Shown: positions 2,183-26,147 of the stretch, piece after piece
Position numbering within the stretch: the first letter of the stretch is position 1
Layout: the number at the start of each line of letters is the position of its first letter
UHGV virus genome: UHGV-1364246
Direction: 5' to 3' (one strand)
DNA from: a virus
DNA length: 39,893 nt
Translations under genes and position numbers: made by a program
The notes under the pieces: generated by a model
Seen by the model: the letters and a program-made list of their open reading frames with translations, nothing else
Told to the model about the DNA's origin: nothing
Database searches by the model: none

Positions 2183-3746
2183 CTTGAGCCATGTCCTCAC
2201 CAGCTACTTGTCCAACAGTAGCGCCCATGTTAGCACCAGCAGCAGACGCACCGTTGACCACAGCTCCTTGAGCGGATTGTTCTGCCATACGTTGCAACTT
2301 CTCGTCCTGAGTCAGCAGCAAACCGGCAGTGTCAATACCTAAGGCATTCAGCAGTCGCAGCTTCAGGGTAGGCAAGTTAATGTCTGGGTCCTGTTGCAGA
2401 GGCTGTAGCCCGGTCATCATGTTTACTGCCTGAGTCAGCTTCTCTAAGTCTTGACCACGACCTAACGCTTCCAGACCAGTGGATACCGTAGGCTCTACTG
2501 CTTCTTTCGGAAGGTCAGGAATCATGCCAGCAGACTGAAGCTGGTTCATCAGTACACGGACGATAGGTAACTGAAGCTCTTGTGACTGCACTGAGTACAC
2601 GCCACCTAAGGTCGCCTCCAGTTCGCCAGCAACATAACGAATCTCTTCAGCAGTGACTCGCTCGGCATTACGCTGAACAGCACTATTAAGAAGGAAGGCC
2701 CAACCTAAACGTTGCTCGATAGCGTCAGCCACCGACTTAGCAATCGTAAAGTCCTGACCTTTCGTCAGTTGCAGGAAGTTGATGTCCTCAACTCGACCAG
2801 CCACGAACTCACCTGTAGCCGCCTTGTTCAGACGTCTAGGTTGCGTGATACCGTTCGGGTTAACGAGGCCCACCACCTTGGAGGCTACCTTAGCCATTTT
2901 GGTGATAGCTTCTGTAATCGTCTCCAGCGAGTTCAGGTCTCCCAGATACTCCTCGCAGTAAGAACGACCGTAGTCTTCACCATCCAGTCGAACCATTCGT
3001 ACCGGGATGTATGGACATGCAGTCAGCGGGTAGGAACCATCGGTCCCTGCCACCTCAATACCTTCCACTTCCTCGTAGCGAAGATACTCGTCGTCCTGAC
3101 GGTAGATGTGCGTATACACTTCAAGCTCGGTGTCAGGCTCATAGTCGTCTGCGTTGAGTTGAGACTTCACGTCTTCCGGTAGAGCACTAAACGCTACCTT
3201 GTCGAGAGTCACAATCTGCAAGATGTTACCGAACGCATCACGTTGAACAACGTAAGACACTAAGCGGTACATTCGCATTGGACTGTAGGTTCCTTGTTCT
3301 GGAGGAGGGATGTAGAGCAGACAGTTACCTGAGACGATAAGCTGCTTCAAAGCCTCAAACAATGGGACACGGAAACTGTTAGTCTCCATGTAGGCCATCA
3401 ACACACGCTCGACCATAGCCAGCCCTTCGTCAACACGAGCAGCCGCCTCTGAGTCCTGACTCAAGGTCTTGGCCTCATATTCGGAGACTGTCAGTCGCAT
3501 CCACGGTGACTGAGGGAATAACGCCAACATCAGCTTTGCAGCCAAGTTGTTCAAGCAGCGAGCACCCACAGCTTGCCACGGCGTCACGTATTCCGTAGAC
3601 GAGTTGTCGGACTCCTTAGGAAACAGTGACGGGATAGTGACAGCCGCACAGTTCTGAGCGCGCGTCTCATATGGCTGTCTACCGTTCTTCAGTCTGTCAT
3701 AAACTGCCTTCGCGCCTTCAGCAGCAAATCCTTCACGTTCAGCCAT
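2178..3746 (-). CDS. Portal (head-to-tail connector) protein, gp8-like
   Basis: 522 aa; MAEREGFAAEGAKAVYDRLKNGRQPYETRAQNCA... closely matches recalled T7 gp8. Confidence 0.9.
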   Translation of the reverse strand: MAEREGFAAEGAKAVYDRLKNGRQPYETRAQNCAAVTIPSLFPKESDNSSTEYVTPWQAVGARCLNNLAAKLMLALFPQSPWMRLTVSEYEAKTLSQDSEAAARVDEGLAMVERVLMAYMETNSFRVPLFEALKQLIVSGNCLLYIPPPEQGTYSPMRMYRLVSYVVQRDAFGNILQIVTLDKVAFSALPEDVKSQLNADDYEPDTELEVYTHIYRQDDEYLRYEEVEGIEVAGTDGSYPLTACPYIPVRMVRLDGEDYGRSYCEEYLGDLNSLETITEAITKMAKVASKVVGLVNPNGITQPRRLNKAATGEFVAGRVEDINFLQLTKGQDFTIAKSVADAIEQRLGWAFLLNSAVQRNAERVTAEEIRYVAGELEATLGGVYSVQSQELQLPIVRVLMNQLQSAGMIPDLPKEAVEPTVSTGLEALGRGQDLEKLTQAVNMMTGLQPLQQDPDINLPTLKLRLLNALGIDTAGLLLTQDEKLQRMAEQSAQGAVVNGASAAGANMGATVGQVAGEDMAQA

Positions 3747-5517: not shown

Positions 5518-6384
5518 TTACATGGATGGTGTCCACAGGATGACCTCCTTGGACTTAGGGTCGTAGTCGGAGGCTCGGCAAATACGAGCGACCTGAGCTT
5601 GGACCAGAAGTTCCTCCTCGGTCATCCCAGCTTTATCAGCCAGAGTCACCATGCAGTCCCACAGCGTCATGTCGTCACGCTTTGGATACTTCTTCCACTC
5701 AGTCTTAATTTTGCCTTTGTTCTTACCAGTCTTAAGCTCACGGCTCTCCTGCACGAAGTAGTACGGCTCGTCAAGGAACGCACGAGTGGTATCCTCACCC
5801 ATCCCCGGAATGCCACCGTAGCCATCTGTAGTGTCACCCTTGATGGTTTGCTCCATGTGCCAGTAGTCTGCCTCAGCAGTAGTATGACTCAGAATTTCAC
5901 CAGTGGTTAACCAGAAGAACTCACAGTTCGGGATGGTCTTGAAGTCCTTATCGCAGGATACCAGCACCGCATGGTCACAGCCAACAATCTGAGGTCTGGT
6001 CCCTATGATACCCATACAGTCATCACCCTCAAGCGTAGGACGTAGGAAGCTGTTGAACCGGGGGTCAGCCATCACTTCGGCTACGAACTTCTTGTAACCT
6101 ACAGGCTTGCGAGAACCTTTACGGTTAGCCTTATAGGTCGGTAATATTGACTTGCGCCAGTTCACGTCATCGGTGAAGCACATCACAATCTTAGCGTCTT
6201 TCCACGCCTTGCGTTTCTTAACGATTTCAGCGATGGTGTTCTCAAGGATACGACGCGCCTTGGCGTGGTCACAAATCAGAGTATAAATATCATCGCCCCA
6301 ATCGGTCTCATCCTCAGCCGCAGCCATAGAAGAGAATACCAGATAGTCACCATCCAGAACCAGAGCTATCTTCTTGTCAGACAT
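5518..6384 (-). CDS. 5'-3' exonuclease (gp6-like, FEN family)
   Basis: 288 aa; LDGDYLVF...NWRK...YKANRK...DGYGGIPGMGE matches recalled T7 gp6. Confidence 0.9.
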   Translation of the reverse strand: MSDKKIALVLDGDYLVFSSMAAAEDETDWGDDIYTLICDHAKARRILENTIAEIVKKRKAWKDAKIVMCFTDDVNWRKSILPTYKANRKGSRKPVGYKKFVAEVMADPRFNSFLRPTLEGDDCMGIIGTRPQIVGCDHAVLVSCDKDFKTIPNCEFFWLTTGEILSHTTAEADYWHMEQTIKGDTTDGYGGIPGMGEDTTRAFLDEPYYFVQESRELKTGKNKGKIKTEWKKYPKRDDMTLWDCMVTLADKAGMTEEELLVQAQVARICRASDYDPKSKEVILWTPSM

Positions 6385-6602
6385 TACGCCTCCTCAACGA
6401 TACACACTGAAGAGAATGCACGTACCGTCTCGACTTCCTCGGCAGCTCCTTTCCAGCGAATAAATGTCTTATGCTTGATGGCTACCGTCTTAGGCATTAC
6501 CCGGACGACTTCGCCTATACACATTGCGTATGATTTTCCAGCAAGACAGAAAGCAACCTTATGTCCTACCTTAAGTTCGCGTCCTGATACGTCTTGATTC
6601 AT
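6384..6602 (-). CDS. Hypothetical 72-aa basic protein at the gp5.9 locus (not homologous to T7 gp5.9)
   Basis: ATG at 6600-6602 overlaps the gp5.7 stop (ATGA); its stop overlaps the gp6 start (TAATG). MNQDVSGRELKVGHKVAFCLAGK... Confidence 0.5.
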   Translation of the reverse strand: MNQDVSGRELKVGHKVAFCLAGKSYAMCIGEVVRVMPKTVAIKHKTFIRWKGAAEEVETVRAFSSVCIVEEA

Positions 6603-9664: not shown

Positions 9665-9680
9665 GGTTAATCCTCCGTTT

Positions 9681-9727
9681 AGTCTAATCATAAAGGCCAC
9701 TCGCTGTGAATGACCTTGAGTCTAGAC
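9681..9727 (-). ncRNA. RNase III processing element (R4.7-like)
   Basis: Conserved ~45-nt element ATCATAAAGGCCAC-N10-ATGACCTTGAGTCTA (plus sense), shared with 17041-17089 and 26086-26139; resembles recalled T7 R-site motif GACTCAAGGTC...GTGGCCTTTATG. Confidence 0.6.
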
Positions 9728-9910
9728 CTAGAAGTCTGTACGCAAGAAGTGGTACATGAACTTACGGTTAGCCTTCTTCCATGCCTTAGAGTCGAACCTC
9801 TGTTCTCCTAGAATGTTTGACAGGAAGGTTGCTTCATCGCTCCACCATTTGTACATGAACCGATGGTATCGAGCTTTAAGTTTCTTTAACACTAGAATGG
9901 AACCCTCCAT
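9728..9910 (-). CDS. Small hypothetical protein (gp4.3/4.5 position)
   Basis: 60 aa ORF with ATG start directly after the primase-helicase gene; weak SD. Confidence 0.35.
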   Translation of the reverse strand: MEGSILVLKKLKARYHRFMYKWWSDEATFLSNILGEQRFDSKAWKKANRKFMYHFLRTDF

Positions 9911-17008: not shown

Positions 17009-17040
17009 GTGGTTAAATCTCCAGTAGTTTACGTTATGTT

Positions 17041-17089
17041 AGGGTTAATCATGAAGGCCACGACTCTGAGTCATGACCTTGAGTCTAAT
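17041..17089 (-). ncRNA. RNase III processing element (R1.1-like) between the promoter and gene 1.1
   Basis: Second copy of the ATCATGAAGGCCAC...ATGACCTTGAGTCTA element. Confidence 0.6.
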
Positions 17090-17108
17090 CCTATAGTGAT
17101 AGTTTAGG
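17086..17108 (-). promoter_or_regulatory. Phage RNAP promoter (phi1.1-like)
   Basis: Minus-sense CTAAACTATCACTATAGGATTAGA. Confidence 0.75.
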
Positions 17109-17398: not shown

Positions 17399-20080
17399 TT
17401 AAGCGAATGCAAAGTCTGAAGACAAGATGTCTTCGATATTCAGTTTACCTTTCTTCGGAAGCTCAGGCAACTTGTCGCGCTGACTCTCGTGAAGCTGGTA
17501 TTCGAACTGCTCGTAGAAGTCAAGCAGTACATCGTTGTCGCGGTAGGTCTCGACCATTGTCTCACGGACGCCACGGAACAGATACTCAGCGTCAGCCGGG
17601 ATGGTCCCGAAGCTATCGTGAATCACTGCGAATGACATCACACCATACTTGCGGTGCGTGTGGACTACAGTCTTGCGGAGGTGGCTGCCATCTTGTGAGT
17701 GGACGAAGTTCGGGCTAATGCCTGACTCCTGCTTGTGCTTGTCTAGCTCTTTCTTCGTGCCTTTGTTGACTGTAGGCTGAAGGTTGAATGACCCTAAGAA
17801 CATCAGGTTCAGACGAGTGGTATCCTTCTTGCGGTATTCCTGCCAGACCGGGAAACCATCAGGTGTGACCCAGTGTACTGGAAGGCAAGGCTTCAGGATT
17901 TCACCAGTCTTCTTGTCCTTCACTTCAGCAGCCAGCAGCTTGGCAGCACCTTGAAGCCACTTCATCGCGTCAACCGCAGCAACTACGGTCACACTCACAG
18001 CTTCCCAAATCATCTTAGCCATGAAGCGAGACGCTTGTCTTGGTTCAGTGAACATAGAGCCAGACCCTGAGTCAATCGCTGGCATCACGATGTCCTCGTA
18101 CACTTGGTCTGCGAATCCGTACTCTTTCGACCCGTAGGCCAGAGTCATGACCGAACGCTTAGTTACCTTGCGTGACATGCCGTAAGTCAGCCACTGCCTG
18201 GCCAGCTCTCGTGTCCCCAGCTTGAGGCGCTCGGTAATCTCACCAGTTTTCTTATCCTCGTGAGTCACCATCTCGTTGTCCGTACCGTTAACCAGCAGGA
18301 CTTTAAGCTCCTCCTCAATGCGGTCAGACACGATGCGGTAGATGTCTTGGACCTTACCGGAAGGCGTCAGGTTTACTGCATGTCCACCTATGTGGTCTCG
18401 AAGCATCGCGCTGAAGTGCTGAATCCCAGAGCAGGACCCATCGAAAGCTATCGGCAGCGAGCAGGAGTAAGACAAACCGTGGTGCATTACGCCAGCATAC
18501 TCGAAGCAGAACGCTAGGAAGCAGAACGGAGAGTCTAACTTACCCCACCACTCAATGCTGTCCATCGGTGCCTTAGCGGTAGCCATGATGTTGTCGTGGT
18601 TGTCTTCCACCCACTTGATGCGCTCCTCGAAGGTGACTTTATCAATACCCGCACAGTTTGCACCGTGGACCTTCAGCCATTTGAAACCATCAGCACCAAT
18701 AGGCTTACCGACTGCCAGAGTTAGGAGACCCTTCTGCATGTCGTTACCCTGAGGGTTGAACATCGGCACAGCGTAGACGCGACCACGCCAGTCCATGTTG
18801 TACGGGAACCAGATGGCCTTGAACTGAGAGAACTTGTTCGCTTGGTTAACGATAAAGCTCAGCGACAATCTGCGTGACTGTCGGGCCTTCTCTCGGCGGT
18901 AGATACCAGCAGCAGCCTTCTTCCATTCCTTGAGTTCCTCTTCAGTCTCACCCGCATAGTCTTCAGGCTTCAGCGGCTCCATCTGAGGGATGTCATCAAT
19001 AGGCGTGTTGTTCAACTTCTCTACCATGTTCACCACGTCCAGAACCTTCTTGTTCACCTTCCAAGGCGTATTCTGGATGATATTCACAGCGTCATAGACT
19101 TCAGGCATGTACACGTCTTCATAACGTGCCACCGCAGACTTAGACCCTAAGCGAATCAGTGGTAGTGGTCTGCGACCTTTGGCCCAGTACCCACCTCCTA
19201 CGACACCAGTCCACGGCTTAGGTGGAACGACACAGGGCTGGTAGACTGGAGCGATACCCGCAAGGCTGAATCCTCGTTGTGCCATCTTCTTGACCCAGAA
19301 GTCTGACAGGTGGACCATCTCGACATCAGCCGCTGCATTGCCAGCACCGTAACGCTTAAGCTCGACCAGTTGTGTTGACTGGATGACAATCTCAAGCATC
19401 TTGATTCCAACGTGGACAGCCTCGGTCGGACTCCAAGTTCCCCACGCATCTTCAAGTTGGCCTTGCTCCAGCATGGAGGTCTCAACAGCTTGCATGTAGG
19501 CTTTTTTGTAGGATGCCCCGGCGCGCTTGTTCAGGTTCTCAGCTATCGCCTTCTTGAAGTGCTCCTTCTCCTTATCACGGATGCGACCGAAGCGGATTTC
19601 ATCCTCAAGTGTGCGACCTATCGCGGAGGCCATCGGTGTAATCGGTATCCCTTCAGGCTTGACCAGCTTGGAGAGGATGACCTTCAGTATGATGACCGCA
19701 GCAGACTCACAGGAGATGCGCAGAGAGCGGTCCTTGACGGCCTTCTCTTCAGTGCTCAACATGGTGAACGCTACGCTAGGACGAGAGGTTGACAGCTTAC
19801 CGTCTGGACCTTCGTGCCACTCCTTGACGGCTTGCGCAATCTTAGGGACCAGAGTCTGCATCAAAGGCTTGGCGACCTGATTGTCTGCCAGTTCCCCGCG
19901 CTCAGTCTGTCGCTCAAGGTTCTTGATGAAACGTCGCTCGCCTTCAGTGTATGCCTCATGCTCAAGCTGAAGCTGTTTGACTGCAAGGTCTTGCCCGTAG
20001 TGGTCAGCCAGCAGGTTAAACGGCTCAATGGCGTTCGACACATCAGAGAAGTCGTGTTTGTCAATAGAGATGACGCTCAT
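17399..20080 (-). CDS. DNA-directed RNA polymerase, single-subunit (T7 gene 1-like)
   Basis: 893 aa; collinear with recalled T7 RNAP (PYNMDWRGRVYA, DGSCSGIQHFSAMLRD, HDSFGT, C-terminal FAFA); specificity-loop region reads LMFLGSFNLQPTVN versus T7 LMFLGQFRLQPTIN. Confidence 0.97.
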   Translation of the reverse strand: MSVISIDKHDFSDVSNAIEPFNLLADHYGQDLAVKQLQLEHEAYTEGERRFIKNLERQTERGELADNQVAKPLMQTLVPKIAQAVKEWHEGPDGKLSTSRPSVAFTMLSTEEKAVKDRSLRISCESAAVIILKVILSKLVKPEGIPITPMASAIGRTLEDEIRFGRIRDKEKEHFKKAIAENLNKRAGASYKKAYMQAVETSMLEQGQLEDAWGTWSPTEAVHVGIKMLEIVIQSTQLVELKRYGAGNAAADVEMVHLSDFWVKKMAQRGFSLAGIAPVYQPCVVPPKPWTGVVGGGYWAKGRRPLPLIRLGSKSAVARYEDVYMPEVYDAVNIIQNTPWKVNKKVLDVVNMVEKLNNTPIDDIPQMEPLKPEDYAGETEEELKEWKKAAAGIYRREKARQSRRLSLSFIVNQANKFSQFKAIWFPYNMDWRGRVYAVPMFNPQGNDMQKGLLTLAVGKPIGADGFKWLKVHGANCAGIDKVTFEERIKWVEDNHDNIMATAKAPMDSIEWWGKLDSPFCFLAFCFEYAGVMHHGLSYSCSLPIAFDGSCSGIQHFSAMLRDHIGGHAVNLTPSGKVQDIYRIVSDRIEEELKVLLVNGTDNEMVTHEDKKTGEITERLKLGTRELARQWLTYGMSRKVTKRSVMTLAYGSKEYGFADQVYEDIVMPAIDSGSGSMFTEPRQASRFMAKMIWEAVSVTVVAAVDAMKWLQGAAKLLAAEVKDKKTGEILKPCLPVHWVTPDGFPVWQEYRKKDTTRLNLMFLGSFNLQPTVNKGTKKELDKHKQESGISPNFVHSQDGSHLRKTVVHTHRKYGVMSFAVIHDSFGTIPADAEYLFRGVRETMVETYRDNDVLLDFYEQFEYQLHESQRDKLPELPKKGKLNIEDILSSDFAFA

Positions 20081-20149
20081 ACTTAAAGTCCTTGTTATTA
20101 GTCTTTCACTTAAAGTCTCTTTGGTCTTTCACTTGGAGTCTTAGACCTT

Positions 20150-20172
20150 GAGTCCTATAGTGATAGTTAAGT
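20150..20172 (-). promoter_or_regulatory. Phage-type promoter about 75 bp upstream of the RNAP gene (TTAACTATCACTATAGGACTC)
   Basis: Matches the -17..+2 core; GGA start as in this phage's class-II promoters; followed by a half R-site motif GACTCAAGGTC. Confidence 0.5.
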
Positions 20173-20177
20173 AAGAA

Positions 20178-20504
20178 TCACTTGCATATCAGTGGGATAG
20201 CGTGAAGATGACTGAAGTCACCATGAGACGTGTGCTTGATGGTTGACCGTTGGTCTATCGCCTTCCAGCCTGAGACTAAAAGTTTGCCATCGTCGGTTGT
20301 TGGTCGTCCACCATACGCCAGACACATCAGTTCGGACTTATGGCCCTCAGCCCGTAGTCGTGCCTGTAGTACACGGTCACGCTCCCGCTGTTGACGTGCG
20401 GTATGACTCGACGTTCCGTGACGATACCCGGTAGCCAGTAGGCTTAACATTTGCATGTCTGCGTCCATAGAGTGTACCAGATTAATCCCGTATGACTTGT
20501 TCAT
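20178..20504 (-). CDS. Hypothetical 108-aa early protein immediately upstream of the RNAP gene
   Basis: ATG at 20502-20504 with AGGAGAA upstream; His-rich C-terminus; no recognised homolog. Confidence 0.5.
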   Translation of the reverse strand: MNKSYGINLVHSMDADMQMLSLLATGYRHGTSSHTARQQRERDRVLQARLRAEGHKSELMCLAYGGRPTTDDGKLLVSGWKAIDQRSTIKHTSHGDFSHLHAIPLICK

Positions 20505-20506
20505 TA

Positions 20507-20932
20507 TTAATTCTCCTGAAGATATTTGAGTGCGCTTGCCAGAAGCTCTGGCGAATCTTTAAATTTTCCTAGACCAATGTTACACGATGCACACAATAAA
20601 CCTCGCACCTTTCCAGACTTATGACAGTGGTCTACGGCTAACCTTCTACCTGTCTCACAAGCACTACCGCAGATTTTGCACCCACCGCCTTGACCTTCCA
20701 GCATGGTAGTATATTCACCCTCCGTTATTCCATACCTAGACCTCAGGTGATAGCCTCTCTCCGTGCTTCGTGCTCTTTTCAATGAGTCGCCATTCCTGTG
20801 TTGTGACGTAACGACCGATGACACTTGACAGGGCTTGCAATATGTCTGTAGTCCGTCCCGCCTAGCCTTGTTCCTGCCAAACATAGTAGCATCCTTAGTC
20901 TCTCCACATTTGGCGCAGGTCTTTTCCATCAC
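20507..20932 (-). CDS. Endonuclease VII-family (HNH-like) protein with N-terminal zinc ribbon
   Basis: 141 aa; CAKCG...CKPC zinc ribbon, then LAVDHCHKSGKVRGLLCASCNIGLG, typical of the Endonuclease_7 family. Confidence 0.65.
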   Translation of the reverse strand: MMEKTCAKCGETKDATMFGRNKARRDGLQTYCKPCQVSSVVTSQHRNGDSLKRARSTERGYHLRSRYGITEGEYTTMLEGQGGGCKICGSACETGRRLAVDHCHKSGKVRGLLCASCNIGLGKFKDSPELLASALKYLQEN

Positions 20933-21126
20933 AGTTTGCTCCCAAGAGTTGCTATATCCCAGACGTTCGCTAGGTTGCGCATGAATCGTCCGTTAGGTTG
21001 ACGTACAGTCCAGCGACCCAGACGTACATAGTTGAATTTGTAGACTTTACGTGCCTTGTTGACGTCTCTCACCAGCACGTAGGCGATAAGTCCATAGCCT
21101 ATGGCTATCAATAGTGTTATACTCAT
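20929..21126 (-). CDS. Small hydrophobic early protein (65 aa, probable single transmembrane helix)
   Basis: MSITLLIAIGYGLIAYVLV... hydrophobic N-terminus; overlaps the Endo VII start (ATGA). Confidence 0.4.
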   Translation of the reverse strand: MSITLLIAIGYGLIAYVLVRDVNKARKVYKFNYVRLGRWTVRQPNGRFMRNLANVWDIATLGSKL

Positions 21127-21560
21127 AGTGATTTCCGTTTAATACAGTCGTATATCCCATACCCTATCAGCCAGATAACTGGCGCTAGACATACCCAATA
21201 TCCCACACCCATAGTTACCTCCTATTAATGCAAGTGGTAATCTTTGAGGCCACCTATCAGTTAGATGACCTCTCGCCTATCACTCAGTACCCGCCTGTTA
21301 GCGTTATGGTCAGGCTATGGTGATTAGCCACGTAGCAAGCCCCGCGCTTCATCATCTCGTAGCAACCATCGTAGAACGCCTGTTCACTGCTATAAGTTAT
21401 CTGGTACATGTTTACTTGTCCTCAGCGTGTAAGCTGTCGTGTATGAGCTTGCGGCCCTCATAGACCGCCTTCAGGAGACGCATAGTCGCATCGTGGTTTA
21501 ATTGCCCGGTCTTGACCATAATCCGGGCGTTGATGATGTGGTGCTGGCAGAGACCATAAG

Positions 21561-22085
21561 TTACCATCTTGATGACCTCACCTCTTGCAGCTTGGACACA
21601 AGGAAGAAGCAGTCCACCAGTATTAACTTGCCGTTCACGGCCCGTACATTGCGTGGGCTTATCTCAAACTGAATGTCAGACCCAAAGTTAGCGCAAGCAT
21701 CCATCGCCATCATCACATCCATCAGACCATCCCGCACAGTCTCAGTCTCAGACCTGTCGTGTGCAGCTTGGAATATCTCGTACCACTTGTGATACAGTTC
21801 AGCAGGTCTAGAGAATACCGGAGACCGTGAGAAGCAGTCTCGCAACACCTGATAGAGTTGCCATTGGTCATCATCTAAATGCGCCTTGAGACCTCGTGTT
21901 GGTGGCATGTAGTCCATCTCATACGTGCCTAACTCAATCATTTTGACTTCAGGGAACAGTGGAGACTCAGGGAACCATCCCCACGCCATACACTCCTTGA
22001 TTGGGTCTGAAGAGACCAGAATTACACGCTTCCCGCAGTCCTTCAGGTAGCACTTAGTGAACGCGCCTTTGCCTATCAGTTTCAT
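21561..22085 (-). CDS. Putative protein kinase-like early protein (short gp0.7-like kinase domain)
   Basis: 174 aa; glycine-rich loop LIGKGAFTKCY; C-terminal NVRAVNGKLILVD resembles the T7 gp0.7 segment NIMFSNGDVPYITD; first gene after the sigma70 promoters. Confidence 0.4.
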   Translation of the reverse strand: MKLIGKGAFTKCYLKDCGKRVILVSSDPIKECMAWGWFPESPLFPEVKMIELGTYEMDYMPPTRGLKAHLDDDQWQLYQVLRDCFSRSPVFSRPAELYHKWYEIFQAAHDRSETETVRDGLMDVMMAMDACANFGSDIQFEISPRNVRAVNGKLILVDCFFLVSKLQEVRSSRW

Positions 22086-22270
22086 CTTGTTTATCCTATA
22101 GTTAGTGACTATCAGTCAGGGCCTTCAGATGTAGACTCAAAGACCCTGTAGTTAGTCGCTATCGGCGCACATTAAGAGTTTATCCAGATTGTTAAAGAGC
22201 ATTCGCGTTGGCTGTCGTCGCCGTGCTATCCCGTTTCAGTGTTGGGACTCACTAATCTTGCCTGCCGTGT

Positions 22271-22299
22271 AAGTTACTACAGTCAAACCAGCTTGTCAA
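22271..22299 (-). promoter_or_regulatory. Sigma70-type early promoter (A-series-like): TTGACA, 17-nt spacer, TAACTT
   Basis: Minus-sense TTGACAagctggtttgactgtagTAACTT. Confidence 0.45.
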
Positions 22300-22425
22300 C
22301 CACTTTCTTAGCTCGCTTGCTGTAGTAACCTACCATCTTACTTAGTAGACCAGATATTCGCGCTGGTCACTCCGCATAGCCGATGTAGTTTATCAGTTCC
22401 GGCTCGCTGTACTGCTTGGTGAATC

Positions 22426-22454
22426 ATACTACTTTAAGTCTTACATCTTGTCAA
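22426..22454 (-). promoter_or_regulatory. Sigma70-type strong early promoter (A1/A2-like): TTGACA, 17-nt spacer, TAGTAT
   Basis: Minus-sense TTGACAagatgtaagacttaaagTAGTAT; upstream block TAAGTAGACAGCCTGATAAGTCG resembles recalled T7 sequence near A2. Confidence 0.6.
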
Positions 22455-22584
22455 CTACTTTCTGTCATCTGCCTGTTGTTCTTACGACTTATCAGGCTGT
22501 CTACTTAACCGTGATGACCCGGCGTCTTCACTATCCGGTGGTTGCCGTGTCGTGTTGACGTAAGCTATTAAGCCATAGTCTAGA

Positions 22585-22607
22585 CCTATAGTCAATAGGT
22601 AATTTGA
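22585..22607 (-). promoter_or_regulatory. Degenerate phage-promoter-like sequence near the left end (phiOL-like)
   Basis: Minus-sense TTACCTATTGACTATAGGTCTAG; only the ACTATAGG core is conserved. Confidence 0.3.
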
Positions 22608-22719
22608 GATAATATTGATTGAGCTATCGTCGGCCCCATGGTGTAAGAGGATATAGTCTTTGACTAACATGTCTTAGACCGTAAGTCTATAGCCTTTGTG
22701 TCTATTAACTGTGGGTCTC

Positions 22720-23045
22720 TGACTGTAGGTGTTGGTGTCTTATGGTTGAGACTGTAGGTTAGTGACTTATGGTCTGATACAGATAGAGACTCAAAGAAGA
22801 CCCATAGTCCCAACCTATCGTCCTGACCATCAGCCATAGCCTAGACCTATCGTAGACCTAACGTCTTGACCATTGGTCCAACCTTATGATAGACTGGGGT
22901 AGGGCCTTTGGTCTGGACTGAAAGAGGGCCTATGGGGAGACTTGAGGTTCTTGAACTGTGAGATGTGGTCTCAAACTTTTGGTCCAAAACTCATCGTCAT
23001 TACTGTAGGTCACAGCCACTGTAGGTCAAGGACCGTAGGTCAGGC
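22720..23045. repeat. Genome-end region: collapsed terminal repeat flanked by arrays of the short direct repeat (C)YGTAGGT; inferred physical left end at about 22963
   Basis: Five copies of ctgtaggt/ccgtaggt (22723, 22752, 23003, 23019, 23033), analogous to T7 ACCTAAAG arrays; minus-sense TCTCACAGT...CCCCATAGG at 22963 downward resembles the first bases of T7. Confidence 0.5.
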
Positions 23046-23200
23046 GACACTAGGATAGACCAATAAGTAGGATGACCCTAAGTGAGCTTCTCTTAAGATG
23101 TTACCTAAAGTCCTTGACTACAGTAGCTAAGGTCAGTAGAGTAGCGTCAGCTATGAACTGACCTTAGGTCTTACTTTCGTTGATTGTTACCATTACGGCG

Positions 23201-23359
23201 TTAATGACACTCAGACACCAGAGAACATACGAGAGTCTCGACCCACCCGACCCACTGACTTCCAGCAGTAACGCCAGCAGCAAGTAGAACAGCAGCAAGA
23301 AACCTGTATGTAGCTCGATTGGTCGCCAGAGCTTTAAGTACAGCTTTGGTCTTTGCCAT
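23201..23359 (-). CDS. gp19.5-like small membrane protein, 52 aa
   Basis: Translated by hand: MAKTKAVLKALATNRATYRFLAAVLLAAGVTAGSQWVGWV...; AGGAGGT 9 nt upstream; lies after the phiOR-like promoter. Confidence 0.5.
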   Translation of the reverse strand: MAKTKAVLKALATNRATYRFLAAVLLAAGVTAGSQWVGWVETLVCSLVSECH

Positions 23360-23547
23360 ATGCTACATACCTCCTGTATCTATGGTCGGTGACTATCTGT
23401 ATTGGAGGGATTATGATTAATATCACCCTCCTTCCTTCCTTCCATCGGTGCAAGCCTTAGGTAAGAACTCGGAGTCTGCCTCCTAAGGTCTTGCATAAAG
23501 TCTGCATATGTATATTCACTACAGTAATACTATAAGTAACCGGGGGT

Positions 23548-23570
23548 CTTCCCTATAGTGATAGTTAAGT
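23548..23570 (-). promoter_or_regulatory. Phage RNAP promoter near the right end (phiOR-like, GGGAAG start)
   Basis: Minus-sense CTTAACTATCACTATAGGGAAGA. Confidence 0.75.
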
Positions 23571-23664
23571 CCAAACTACTTGTAAAACAGTAGGTTAGAC
23601 TGGTAGTAACTATAGGTTACTAACCGCGTATTCATGCAGCTTTCACCCATAGTTATTCATTCAG

Positions 23665-25428
23665 TTAGTGGAACGTAACGTAGGACCCTAGTCCTAGCTC
23701 GTCGTCCGTATCGTGCGTTACCCGGACCCCATTGTCCCAGAACTCAGTGTGGATGGACTCGAATCCTTTCCGTGGGTTCTCCATCTGTTCCTCCAGCCAC
23801 TCCTCAGTGACTTCACGTTCGCCTTTGTTGGCATCCTTAGCCATAGACTCAACGAAGAACTGTACACCGATAGCCAGCGCATCAAGTCGGTCATCGTGTG
23901 CCAAGGCGCCACGTTCACGAGATATACGTGTCATCTGGTAGAAGAGAGAGTAGATAGGGTTACGAACACCATCCTTATCAGAGGCTGACTGGTAGTCTTG
24001 GACGATAGCAGCAGCGTTTACGATAAGTCGGTGAGACCCCATGATAGGCTCCAGAACGTCACAGATGCGTAGTTCTTTCTGACCCTTACTCTTCACTTCA
24101 GTTACAGCCGCAGGATGAATACGGGCAGCTACAGGCTTGAATAGCTCAAGGTACATACCATCACCGAAGTTACCCTCAATGACGTATTCGTTAACCTTCC
24201 ACTTACGACCAATCTTAGCCAAGGCTTCCAGCGTAGAGTCTTCATAGCCACCACGCATACCACCAACTTCCATAGCGAAGATGTAGCCGTTGAGCTGGTA
24301 CAGTACCGCATAGCCAGTTTCATCCTTACCACGACCACTAGGGTCAATGACCAGAATCTTCTGGGTGTACGAACTGAAGGCAGAACCTACAGTCTGATAC
24401 GTGTGGTATGAGTCACCCATGAGTCCAACGTTAGGAACGTCCTCACGCTTGTTCTGAGGGTTAGGCAACCATTGGTAGACCATTGGGCTGGACGCTGGGT
24501 CCAAGTCTGCTACGATAAGGTCACGGAGCTTCAGAGGGTACTTCTCGGCATCACTCAGGTTCGGGTTAAGCATGAACTGTAGAGCGAAACCAGCTTTACC
24601 GTACGACAACTCGCGTTCCTTCAGGTCCGTATCATCGAAGCGTACTTCATCAGTCGGACGCCAGTAGAAGGACTCAGGGTCCTCTTCCAGCTCTGCCTGA
24701 AGCATAGGAGCCAGACGGTCGCCGTAAGACTGCCAGTCCTTCCTGTCGCGTGGATAACGAGCGGGCCAGATAGTAGTGGTGTACCCACGACCTTCCAGCT
24801 CACGATACAGGGTCATCTCGTTCTGAGGAGTACCCAGATAGATGATTGTACCTCCCGGCTTCAGGATAGCGTCGAATTCTTTCACAAGCTCTGACAGACG
24901 GTCACGCGCAGCCTGAGTCGCTGAGTTGTTCGGAACTTCCACGTCATCGGCAATCAGGATGTCAGCACGACTACCAGTCAACTGACCAGTGATACCAACG
25001 GACTTAACCGAAGGTGAGTGGTCCGGCTTGGCTGGCCCAACATCAAAGCTGATAACCGCATCTCGTTGTCCCTGCTTAGGTTTGAGTTCCTGAAGCTGAG
25101 GCATGAGGTCGATGATTCGCTTGATGAAGATGGAGTTCGCATCGGCTCGTTCCTTTGAGGCCGACACAATCATGAACTTCAAGTCTGGGTTGTTCCATAA
25201 CTTCCAGACAACGAAGGCACACGTAATGAAGGACTTCCCTATACCACGGAACGCCTGTAGAATGAAGCGCCTGTTGTCCCCAGCCGATAGTTTCTTCGCC
25301 ATGTCAATCTGACAGCGAGTCGGGACCGGGAGTGACAGAGCTTTCCACAGGACGAACAGGAAGAACACGAAGTCTGACTTCATACGTGCAGTCATTAGCG
25401 CCTGACGCGCCACTAAGTCTTTACTCAA
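23665..25428 (-). CDS. Terminase large subunit (gp19-like)
   Basis: 587 aa; [28 protein letters not shown]...[18 protein letters not shown] (Walker A) closely matches recalled T7 gp19; apparent TTG start with AAGGAGGT 8 nt upstream. Confidence 0.93.
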
Positions 25429-26085: not shown

Positions 26086-26139
26086 TTAGTGTTAACCATA
26101 AAGGCCACTACATATAGTAATGACCTTGAGTCTAACACT
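26086..26139 (-). ncRNA. RNase III processing element (R18.5-like)
   Basis: Third copy of the CCATAAAGGCCAC...ATGACCTTGAGTCTA element, between genes 18 and 18.5. Confidence 0.6.
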
Positions 26140-26147
26140 TAAGATAT

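Follow-up and report, generated by a model that had tools for sequence, protein, structure and literature searches.

A densely packed early region with a candidate R0.5-type RNase III site in a T7-like Kayfunavirus genome

The DNA analysed here, hereafter referred to as the window, is a stretch of 39,893 nucleotides of viral origin (UHGV-1364246), and the region of interest comprises positions 21127–21560 of this window. Together with its flanks, this region matched Kayfunavirus genomes at 87–94% identity (183 phage records), and GA2A, SH4 and the Salmonella ST-series phages were among the best matches. The window is therefore a Kayfunavirus, a K1F-like relative of T7. All recognisable genes in the vicinity of 21127–21560 are carried by the minus strand. 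A T7-type RNA polymerase gene is located at 20080..17399 and the large terminase gene at 25428..23665, both on the minus strand, and between them runs a chain of small early genes on that same strand. Since the neighbouring genes all lie on the minus strand, the stretch 21127–21560 is to be read on this strand as well. Read in this direction, approximately 361 of the 434 nt (~83%) are coding, the small genes being joined by overlaps or by a gap of 2 nt, and the sole non-coding piece is a spacer of 71 nt (21283..21213). An earlier note had described the stretch as poor in ORFs, with none exceeding 35 codons. Neither description holds, since the minus strand is largely coding and carries ORFs of 51 and 41 aa, and the ORF list for the plus strand includes an antisense ORF of 48 aa (21317..21463). 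IMG/VR was scanned with the 174-aa protein encoded immediately upstream and with a pattern derived from the spacer, which returned 4 and 7 loci, respectively. Because these loci were few and mostly duplicates of GenBank phages, the sequence diversity for our comparisons was drawn from 17 individual GenBank records.

The most upstream of the small genes is a 51-aa ORF (21567..21412, minus strand), the ATG of which overlaps the end of the 174-aa gene. This ORF matched phrog_5058 with an E-value of 4e-26 and, in a BLASTP comparison, was 37% identical to T7 gp0.4 over 41 residues (E 3e-6). T7 gp0.4 is assigned to a different PHROG family, phrog_7202, and the two families cross-hit reciprocally. 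The T7 protein likewise consists of 51 aa and is likewise encoded after a gene in the 0.3 slot. By sequence, size and position, the 51-aa ORF is thus a homologue of T7 gene 0.4, the product of which is reportedly an inhibitor of FtsZ (Kiro et al. 2013). The 51-aa protein was conserved over 12 distinct relatives, and its ORF is annotated as a CDS in GA2A, SH4, EPr2, Peacock and CLB_P1, bearing the name gp0.35 in K1F and CLB_P1. The next gene in the chain is a 41-aa accessory early gene (21409..21284, minus strand), known as 'gp0.351' in CLB_P1, which matched phrog_33188 (E 1.8e-6). Some Kayfunavirus genomes carry this gene, whereas K1F itself lacks it, and the annotators of CLB_P1 considered it an insertion relative to K1F. 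The gene is annotated in GA2A, EPr2, Peacock and CLB_P1, and the ORF was intact in all 13 distinct full-length homologous sequences. Its variable columns were distributed over the first, second and third codon positions as 9/8/21, and the codon differences comprised 426 synonymous versus 193 non-synonymous changes.

Downstream of the spacer, the ORF list and comparative codon statistics revealed a gene for a predicted single-pass membrane peptide of 29 aa (21212..21123, minus strand), with the sequence MGVGYWVCLAPVIWLIGYGIYDCIKRKSL. Its TGA overlaps the ATG of the following 65-aa gene (ATGA), and a Shine-Dalgarno sequence, AGGAGG (21223..21218, minus strand), is positioned 5 nt upstream of its ATG. 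The Shine-Dalgarno sequence was kept as GGAG, GAGG or AGG in all relatives, and the Peacock record annotates a ribosome-binding site at this position. In all 18 distinct sequences (17 relatives and the window) the ORF was exactly 29 codons long. The variable columns were distributed over the three codon positions as 13/9/26, and both other reading frames across the ORF contained stops in most or all sequences. The peptide has a hydrophobic core (residues 6–20) and a basic tail; PHROG and Pfam searches with it gave no match. The records of EPr2, Peacock and P762 list the ORF as a CDS. In the window, the 29-aa ORF would accordingly be translated into a membrane peptide. Altogether, the 51-, 41- and 29-aa genes were all intact in the relatives, with variation mainly at third codon positions. 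The 65-aa protein encoded further downstream was also compared with T7 gp0.6A, and no similarity between the two was found.

On the gene strand, the 71-nt spacer has the sequence GAGUGAUAGGCGAGAGGUCAUCUAACUGAUAGGUGGCCUCAAAGAUUACCACUUG, continued by CAUUAAUAGGAGGUAACUAUG, and it was predicted to fold into a bipartite RNA hairpin of 55 nt (21285..21231, minus strand). This hairpin comprises a lower stem of 9 positions, an internal loop of 4x5 nt, an upper stem of 11 bp and an apical loop of 5 nt, and the lower stem contains one A.C mismatch in the window's genome. The hairpin begins with the last two bases of the TGA that ends the 41-aa gene, and it precedes the AGGAGG and the ATG of the 29-aa gene. 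It is therefore intercistronic on the transcribed strand, with the stop codon of the 41-aa gene on one side and the ribosome-binding site of the 29-aa gene on the other. The minimum free energy of the fold was -20.7 kcal/mol (z = -3.83), and none of 200 shuffled sequences was as stable. By BLAST, the spacer was present in 32 of the 32 loci retrieved, K1F included, and it was encountered in about 170 phage records. The same fold was predicted for all 18 distinct spacer variants, and RNAalifold independently gave the same structure. In an alignment of 19 sequences, 96.2% of the cells contained standard pairs, versus 32–51% when the 3′ partners were slid by 1–3 columns. Changes on both sides were observed at three pairs. 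In the upper stem, the closing pair was altered from G-C to C-G or A-U, and the ninth pair, adjoining the apical loop, from C-G to U-A; in the lower stem, the A.C mismatch was repaired independently to A-U or G-C. Eight further pairs varied on one side only, with pairing kept. The 19 aligned sequences are closely related, so that the covariation stems from few independent events; these all point in the same direction, and the compensatory changes support the predicted hairpin. An Rfam match was not found for positions 20000–23700 at E <= 1. The possibility that the hairpin serves as an intrinsic terminator was rejected, since a terminator scan of both strands detected no terminator-like site in 20900–22300, and the hairpin is followed by GCAUUAAUAGGAGG rather than by a U run.

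In T7, the gap between genes 0.4 and 0.5 measures 62 nt and reads GAGUGAUAGACUCAAGGUCGCUCCUAGCGAGUGGCCUUUAUGAUUAUCACUU; it contains the RNase III site R0.5, known since 1983 and reportedly cut after nt 1468 (Dunn & Studier 1983). The hairpin of the window aligns to positions 1428–1480 of T7. The 5′ arm of the lower stem, GAGUGAUAG, is identical in both, and the 3′ arm differs by a single base (UUAUCACUU in T7 versus UUACCACUU in the window). The two hairpins have the same geometry with a 4x5 internal loop, and both have an upper stem of the RGGUC...GGCCUY type. Furthermore, both are located after a gene 0.4 homologue block and before a gene for a small hydrophobic peptide, with a strong ribosome-binding site within ~20 nt downstream. 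In contrast to T7 R0.5, the hairpin of the window combines an 11-bp upper stem with a 5-nt loop and has one A.C mismatch in the lower stem, and the extra 41-aa gene is inserted between the gene 0.4 homologue and the site. The internal loop also differs, being GCGA/AAAGA in the window and ACUC/UAUGA in T7 R0.5, so that only the 4x5 size is kept. Judged by homology and gene context, the hairpin at 21285..21231 is the counterpart of T7 R0.5. R0.5 is an early RNase III site of T7 that has been used as a part (PMC3643576).

A covariance model (model R1) was built from the 19 hairpin sequences, T7 R0.5 among them, and applied to the first 7 kb of T7. The five best plus-strand hits were at 853–902, 1428–1480, 3101–3150, 5848–5899 and 6421–6446, which are the locations of R0.3, R0.5, R1, R1.1 and R1.3. 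The R0.5 hit was obtained by construction, as this site was in the training set, while the other four were not part of it. The cut positions reported for the four full-length hits, R0.3, R0.5, R1 and R1.1, are 890, 1468, 3138 and 5887, respectively (Dunn & Studier 1983), and they are consistent with the hairpin geometry: each is found 5 nt beyond the GCC(C) with which the 3′ arm of the upper stem closes. The R1.3 hit covers the upper stem only, its reported cut at 6448 being 2 nt past the end of the hit. The T7 early sites R0.3, R1, R1.1 and R1.3 and the late sites R4.7 and R18.5 share the two-helix architecture of the window's hairpin, and the latter, with its two helical segments of ~20 bp in total and its asymmetric internal loop, has the architecture of a T7-type site.

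Within the window, the model found five hairpins, all on the gene strand. The highest score (75 bits) was that of the hairpin at 21285..21231 in the spacer between the 41-aa and 29-aa genes, matched with T7 R0.5. The others were located at 26140..26086, immediately before the 149-aa gene, which itself precedes the terminase gene (44.9 bits; T7 R18.5), at 17093..17039, just after the RNA polymerase gene and abutting a phage promoter (37.3 bits; T7 R1.1), at 9730..9679, between the replication genes for proteins of 566 and 722 aa (34.9 bits; T7 R4.7), and at 22161..22102, just upstream of the first early gene (19 bits; T7 R0.3), all four on the minus strand. R4.7 and R18.5 are late RNase III sites of T7. 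At the position of R1, upstream of the RNA polymerase gene, no hit of the model was found in the window. The four other hairpins carry the canonical T7 GACUCAAGGUCAU...GUGGCCUUUAUGAUUA or a close form of it, whereas the one at 21285..21231 is divergent. The ACUC/UAUGA internal loop is common to T7 R0.3, R0.5 and R1.1 and to the window's three best other hits; the hairpin at 21285..21231 does not conform to it, and T7 R1 departs from it too. This loop is therefore typical of T7-type sites rather than strictly defining for them. An RNase III site was not annotated in any of the GenBank records of 20 relatives, and a literature search retrieved no mention of RNase III together with Kayfunavirus.

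On the gene strand, sigma-70-like promoters were identified upstream of the region, at 22454..22426 and 23029..23002 (minus strand). A sigma-70 scan detected no promoter-like site on the gene strand inside the stretch, the single match being on the plus strand. In view of these upstream promoters, and with neither a terminator nor a gene-strand promoter inside the region, the early genes are most likely transcribed into one RNA, by analogy with T7. Host RNA polymerase would thus produce a single polycistronic early RNA, in which the 174-aa gene at the gene-0.3 position would be followed by the 51-aa gene, the 41-aa gene, the 55-nt hairpin, the 29-aa gene and the 65-aa '0.6' gene. Host RNase III would recognise the two stacked helices, ~20 bp in all, and, within the asymmetric internal loop, would make a single cut on the 3′ side. 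The alignment with T7 R0.5 (CCUUUAU/GAU) predicts this cut at CCUCAAA/GAUUACC, that is, between positions 21243 and 21242 on the minus strand. The upstream message would then keep the hairpin as a protective 3′ end, while the downstream message would begin ~20 nt ahead of the AGGAGG that serves the 29-aa gene. That RNase III cleaves here, where precisely it cuts and how this affects RNA stability and translation are proposed by analogy with T7.

Taken together, we consider the stretch 21127–21560 to be a normal, densely packed part of a T7-like early (class I) operon with an R0.5-type RNase III site, and we put the probability of this reading at roughly 0.82. The ORFs and their conservation, the hairpin fold, its covariation, and the homology and gene context that it has in common with T7 R0.5 are direct observations. 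The earlier note had listed a processing site among the possible contents of the stretch, and this suggestion gained support in that the spacer holds a homologue of T7 R0.5, at which RNase III would cut. Conceivably, the hairpin could be conserved as a structure only and remain uncut, acting as a barrier to 3′-exonucleases or as a modulator of the translation of the 29-aa gene, with the divergent loop having abolished processing. The departure of the internal-loop sequence from the T7 consensus would fit this idea, and so would a weak second hairpin, in which the ribosome-binding site of the 29-aa gene might be occluded. However, in its 4x5 loop geometry, its stem lengths and the sequence of its lower stem, the hairpin agrees with a known and highly processive RNase III site, and T7 R1 has a non-consensus loop as well and is still a site (Dunn & Studier 1983). 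Moreover, the hairpin was kept at its gene junction in each of the 32 loci retrieved, and we therefore regard an uncut hairpin as unlikely. The earlier note had also mentioned a small RNA, and a stable and conserved hairpin in a non-coding gap is what an independent small RNA encoded by the spacer could look like. Yet the scans gave neither a promoter-like site on the gene strand nor a terminator-like site, Rfam yielded no match, and the hairpin extends from inside the upstream stop codon to ~20 nt before the next ribosome-binding site, as is typical of an intercistronic processing signal. That the spacer encodes a small RNA of its own is accordingly extremely improbable.

Two further readings of the stretch concern a different protein product and the repeated motifs. 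A GTG-initiated ORF in another frame, running across the spacer, is annotated in two RefSeq records, namely GA2A (gp05) and EcoDS1 (AS9_0003), and this frame was open for 44–100 codons in 10 of 17 sequences. On these grounds, a protein of ~44–47 aa that is frameshifted in the window might be encoded by the spacer together with the 29-aa region. In the remaining 7 of the 17 sequences, the window included, the ORF was, however, cut to 8–19 codons by indels in the hairpin loop. It is also devoid of a Shine-Dalgarno sequence, and where it overlaps the 29-aa frame the variation falls at the third positions of the 29-aa frame and not at those of the GTG frame. In genomes with the 55-aa downstream allele, the GTG frame runs through unrelated sequence. 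The idea that a conserved gene is disrupted only in this genome, which the earlier note had named as an observation that would refute its reading, was rejected, as the frame was shortened in 6 of the 16 relatives in which it could be followed too. Given this truncation in relatives, it is not a real conserved gene; a frameshifted protein gene is very unlikely, and we regard the GTG-frame CDS in GA2A and EcoDS1 as a mis-annotation. As for the motifs, the repeats reported earlier do exist. CCTATCA(G/C) occurs as CCTATCAG at 21163 and 21253 and as CCTATCAC at 21276; position 22072 carries a fourth copy, and ATATCCCAYACCC occurs at 21152 and 21198. The presence of one 7-mer three times within 125 nt, and of two copies of the 13-mer where 0.09 are expected, might suggest binding sites on the DNA for a protein of the phage or the host. 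In the whole window, the 4 copies of CCTATCA(G/C) compare with 2.5 expected from shuffles. Dinucleotide-shuffled windows contained on average 1.3 clusters of one 7-mer three times within 125 nt, and the real window contained 14, so that the CCTATCA cluster is not exceptional for this genome. Nor do its copies represent equivalent sites, since they lie in three unrelated functional contexts and at irregular spacings of 90 and 23 nt. The copy at 21276..21283 (plus strand) reads GTGATAGG on the minus strand and forms the 5′ arm of the hairpin's lower stem, of which GAGUGAUAG is conserved as far as T7. The copy at 21253..21260 (plus strand) reads CTGATAGG on the minus strand, covering the apical loop and the first bases of the 3′ arm of the upper stem, and it is not kept in Ro45lw, L024 or T7. 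The copy at 21163..21170 (plus strand) reads CTG ATA GG(G) on the minus strand, which represents codons Leu15-Ile16-Gly17 of the 29-aa gene, and the versions of this site in relatives are ATGATAGG, CTGATAGC, ATGGTAGG or CTAATAGC; motif copies in the coding region thus change freely at synonymous positions, and the relatives showed no preservation of the motif in the DNA where the amino acids differ. Both copies of the 13-mer (21152–21164 and 21198–21210, plus strand) are inside the 29-aa gene, where they read GGGTGTGGGATAT, starting from the third base of the ATG, and GGGTATGGGATAT, in frame as G-Y-G-I, on the minus strand. A peptide repeat could be ruled out, as the copies do not share a reading frame. 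Between them there is a 1-base difference in the window, against differences at 3–9 of 13 positions in the 17 relatives, so that the motif comparison in related phages, as proposed in the earlier note, disclosed no conservation of the pair. The 13-mer pair is a coincidence of Gly and Tyr codons rather than a conserved repeat, and the repeated motifs in general arise as by-products of the stem sequence and of the codons for Leu-Ile-Gly and Gly-Tyr-Gly. Protein-binding sites, which the earlier note had considered, are therefore highly improbable.

The hairpin is the Kayfunavirus counterpart of a known T7 element, and the small genes are already annotated in several GenBank records. The finding does not open a new biological question. 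Its main value lies in annotation, as an apparent gap is replaced by three micro-genes and a candidate processing signal. In addition, five likely RNase III sites were located in one Kayfunavirus, a recurrent mis-annotation was recognised in the GTG-frame CDS across the hairpin in GA2A and EcoDS1, and a recurrently missed gene, that for the 29-aa membrane peptide, was found. Phage therapy and engineering make use of Kayfunaviruses such as K1F and LM33_P1, and knowledge of the processing sites and micro-genes of the early region should therefore be useful for genome refactoring or payload insertion.

Finally, the genes on either side of the spacer proved to be variable. Downstream of the spacer, the slot held one or another of at least three alleles (29, 55 and 34 aa) that are unrelated to each other, and the same spacer was preceded by at least three different upstream genes. 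K1F gp0.36 (55 aa, hydrophobic) occupies exactly the same slot behind the same spacer as the 29-aa gene, and the product of T7 gene 0.5 (47 aa, hydrophobic) is, like the 29-aa peptide, a small membrane-type peptide encoded directly downstream of an R0.5-type hairpin. Similarity of the 29-aa peptide to either of these proteins was undetectable, and they belong to different PHROG families or to none. Because variable genes flank an invariant spacer on both sides, it is tempting to speculate that the RNase III hairpin doubles as a fixed recombination joint for the swapping of early accessory genes, although we consider this idea rather doubtful. If true, the early region of Kayfunavirus would contain portable gene cassettes, each stabilised individually and delimited by processing sites, and the 29-aa peptide would be one of several interchangeable effectors of host takeover or exclusion. 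In some relatives, an extra gene of 115 aa was present with a second hairpin of its own.

The covariance model built from the 19 aligned spacer sequences matched four further sites in the window, all on the minus strand. These putative RNase III hairpins occupy positions equivalent to those of T7 R0.3 (22102-22161), R1.1 (17039-17093), R4.7 (9679-9730) and R18.5 (26086-26140). At the first of them, a short direct repeat (22095-22113 and 22145-22163) corresponds to both lower-stem arms of the hairpin. Upstream of the gene for RNA polymerase, where an R1 counterpart would lie, the model gave no match in the window. A phage-promoter-like consensus, AACTATCACTATAGGR, was found in 11 copies, where 0.24 would be expected, and all of these lie on the gene (minus) strand (for example at 20153-20168, 17089-17104, 23551-23566 and 2163-2178). 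One copy is located upstream of the RNA polymerase gene, while another leads directly into the R1.1-type hairpin, much as phi1.1A of T7 runs into its own R1.1 hairpin.

In some relatives, a second copy of the hairpin immediately follows the 41-aa gene. This copy was located at 262-342 in the retrieved locus of Mt1B1_P3, at 711-791 in that of ESh23 and at 1737-1817 in a third locus (L011). In Mt1B1_P3 an additional 115-aa gene is annotated after it, with the usual hairpin coming next. The upper stem of the second copy (CAGGUCAUC...GGUGGCCUG) resembles that of T7 R1. The arrangement suggests that accessory genes are acquired along with their own processing site.

The RefSeq annotations of GA2A and EcoDS1 each place a GTG-initiated coding sequence (1940-2080 and 1493-1636 of the respective loci) across the RNase III-type hairpin and the 29-aa gene. 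By comparison among relatives, this frame lacks conservation, and the evidence points to the unannotated 29-aa ORF as the real gene. In the window, the 29-aa gene (21123-21212, minus strand) adjoins the gene for the 65-aa protein (20929-21126, minus strand). Both the 29-aa peptide and the membrane segment at the N terminus of the 65-aa protein contain an (L/A)IGYG(I/L) core, after which come an acidic residue and a basic cluster, and the two could be old tandem paralogues. The common core also accounts for the local recurrence of TGATAG- and CTATGG-like strings.

In GA2A, SH4 and EPr2 the 65-aa '0.6' gene directly adjoins the 108-aa gene; in the window the two are separated by an inserted 141-aa endonuclease VII/HNH-type gene (20507-20932, minus strand; PF02945, E 2.8e-26). 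Its product is probably a free-standing homing endonuclease.

The slot taken in the window by the 174-aa protein (21561-22085, minus strand) is held by Ocr (gene 0.3) in K1F, EcoDS1 and numerous relatives. The 174-aa protein is a member of phrog_11084, and its homologues number more than 150. The earlier note had called its gene kinase-like. At the sequence level, neither a match in Pfam or PDB nor any similarity to T7 gp0.7 was detected. At the level of fold, nearly all PDB matches obtained by Foldseek with the confident AlphaFold model (pLDDT 96) were protein-kinase-like folds, such as APH(2''), CK2 and RIO2, albeit weak ones (best E 8e-4, TM about 0.4). Invariant residues include G5, G7, K30, E141, S143, P144, R145, N146 and D158. 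The 174-aa protein may be a minimal kinase-fold protein sitting in an anti-defence slot.
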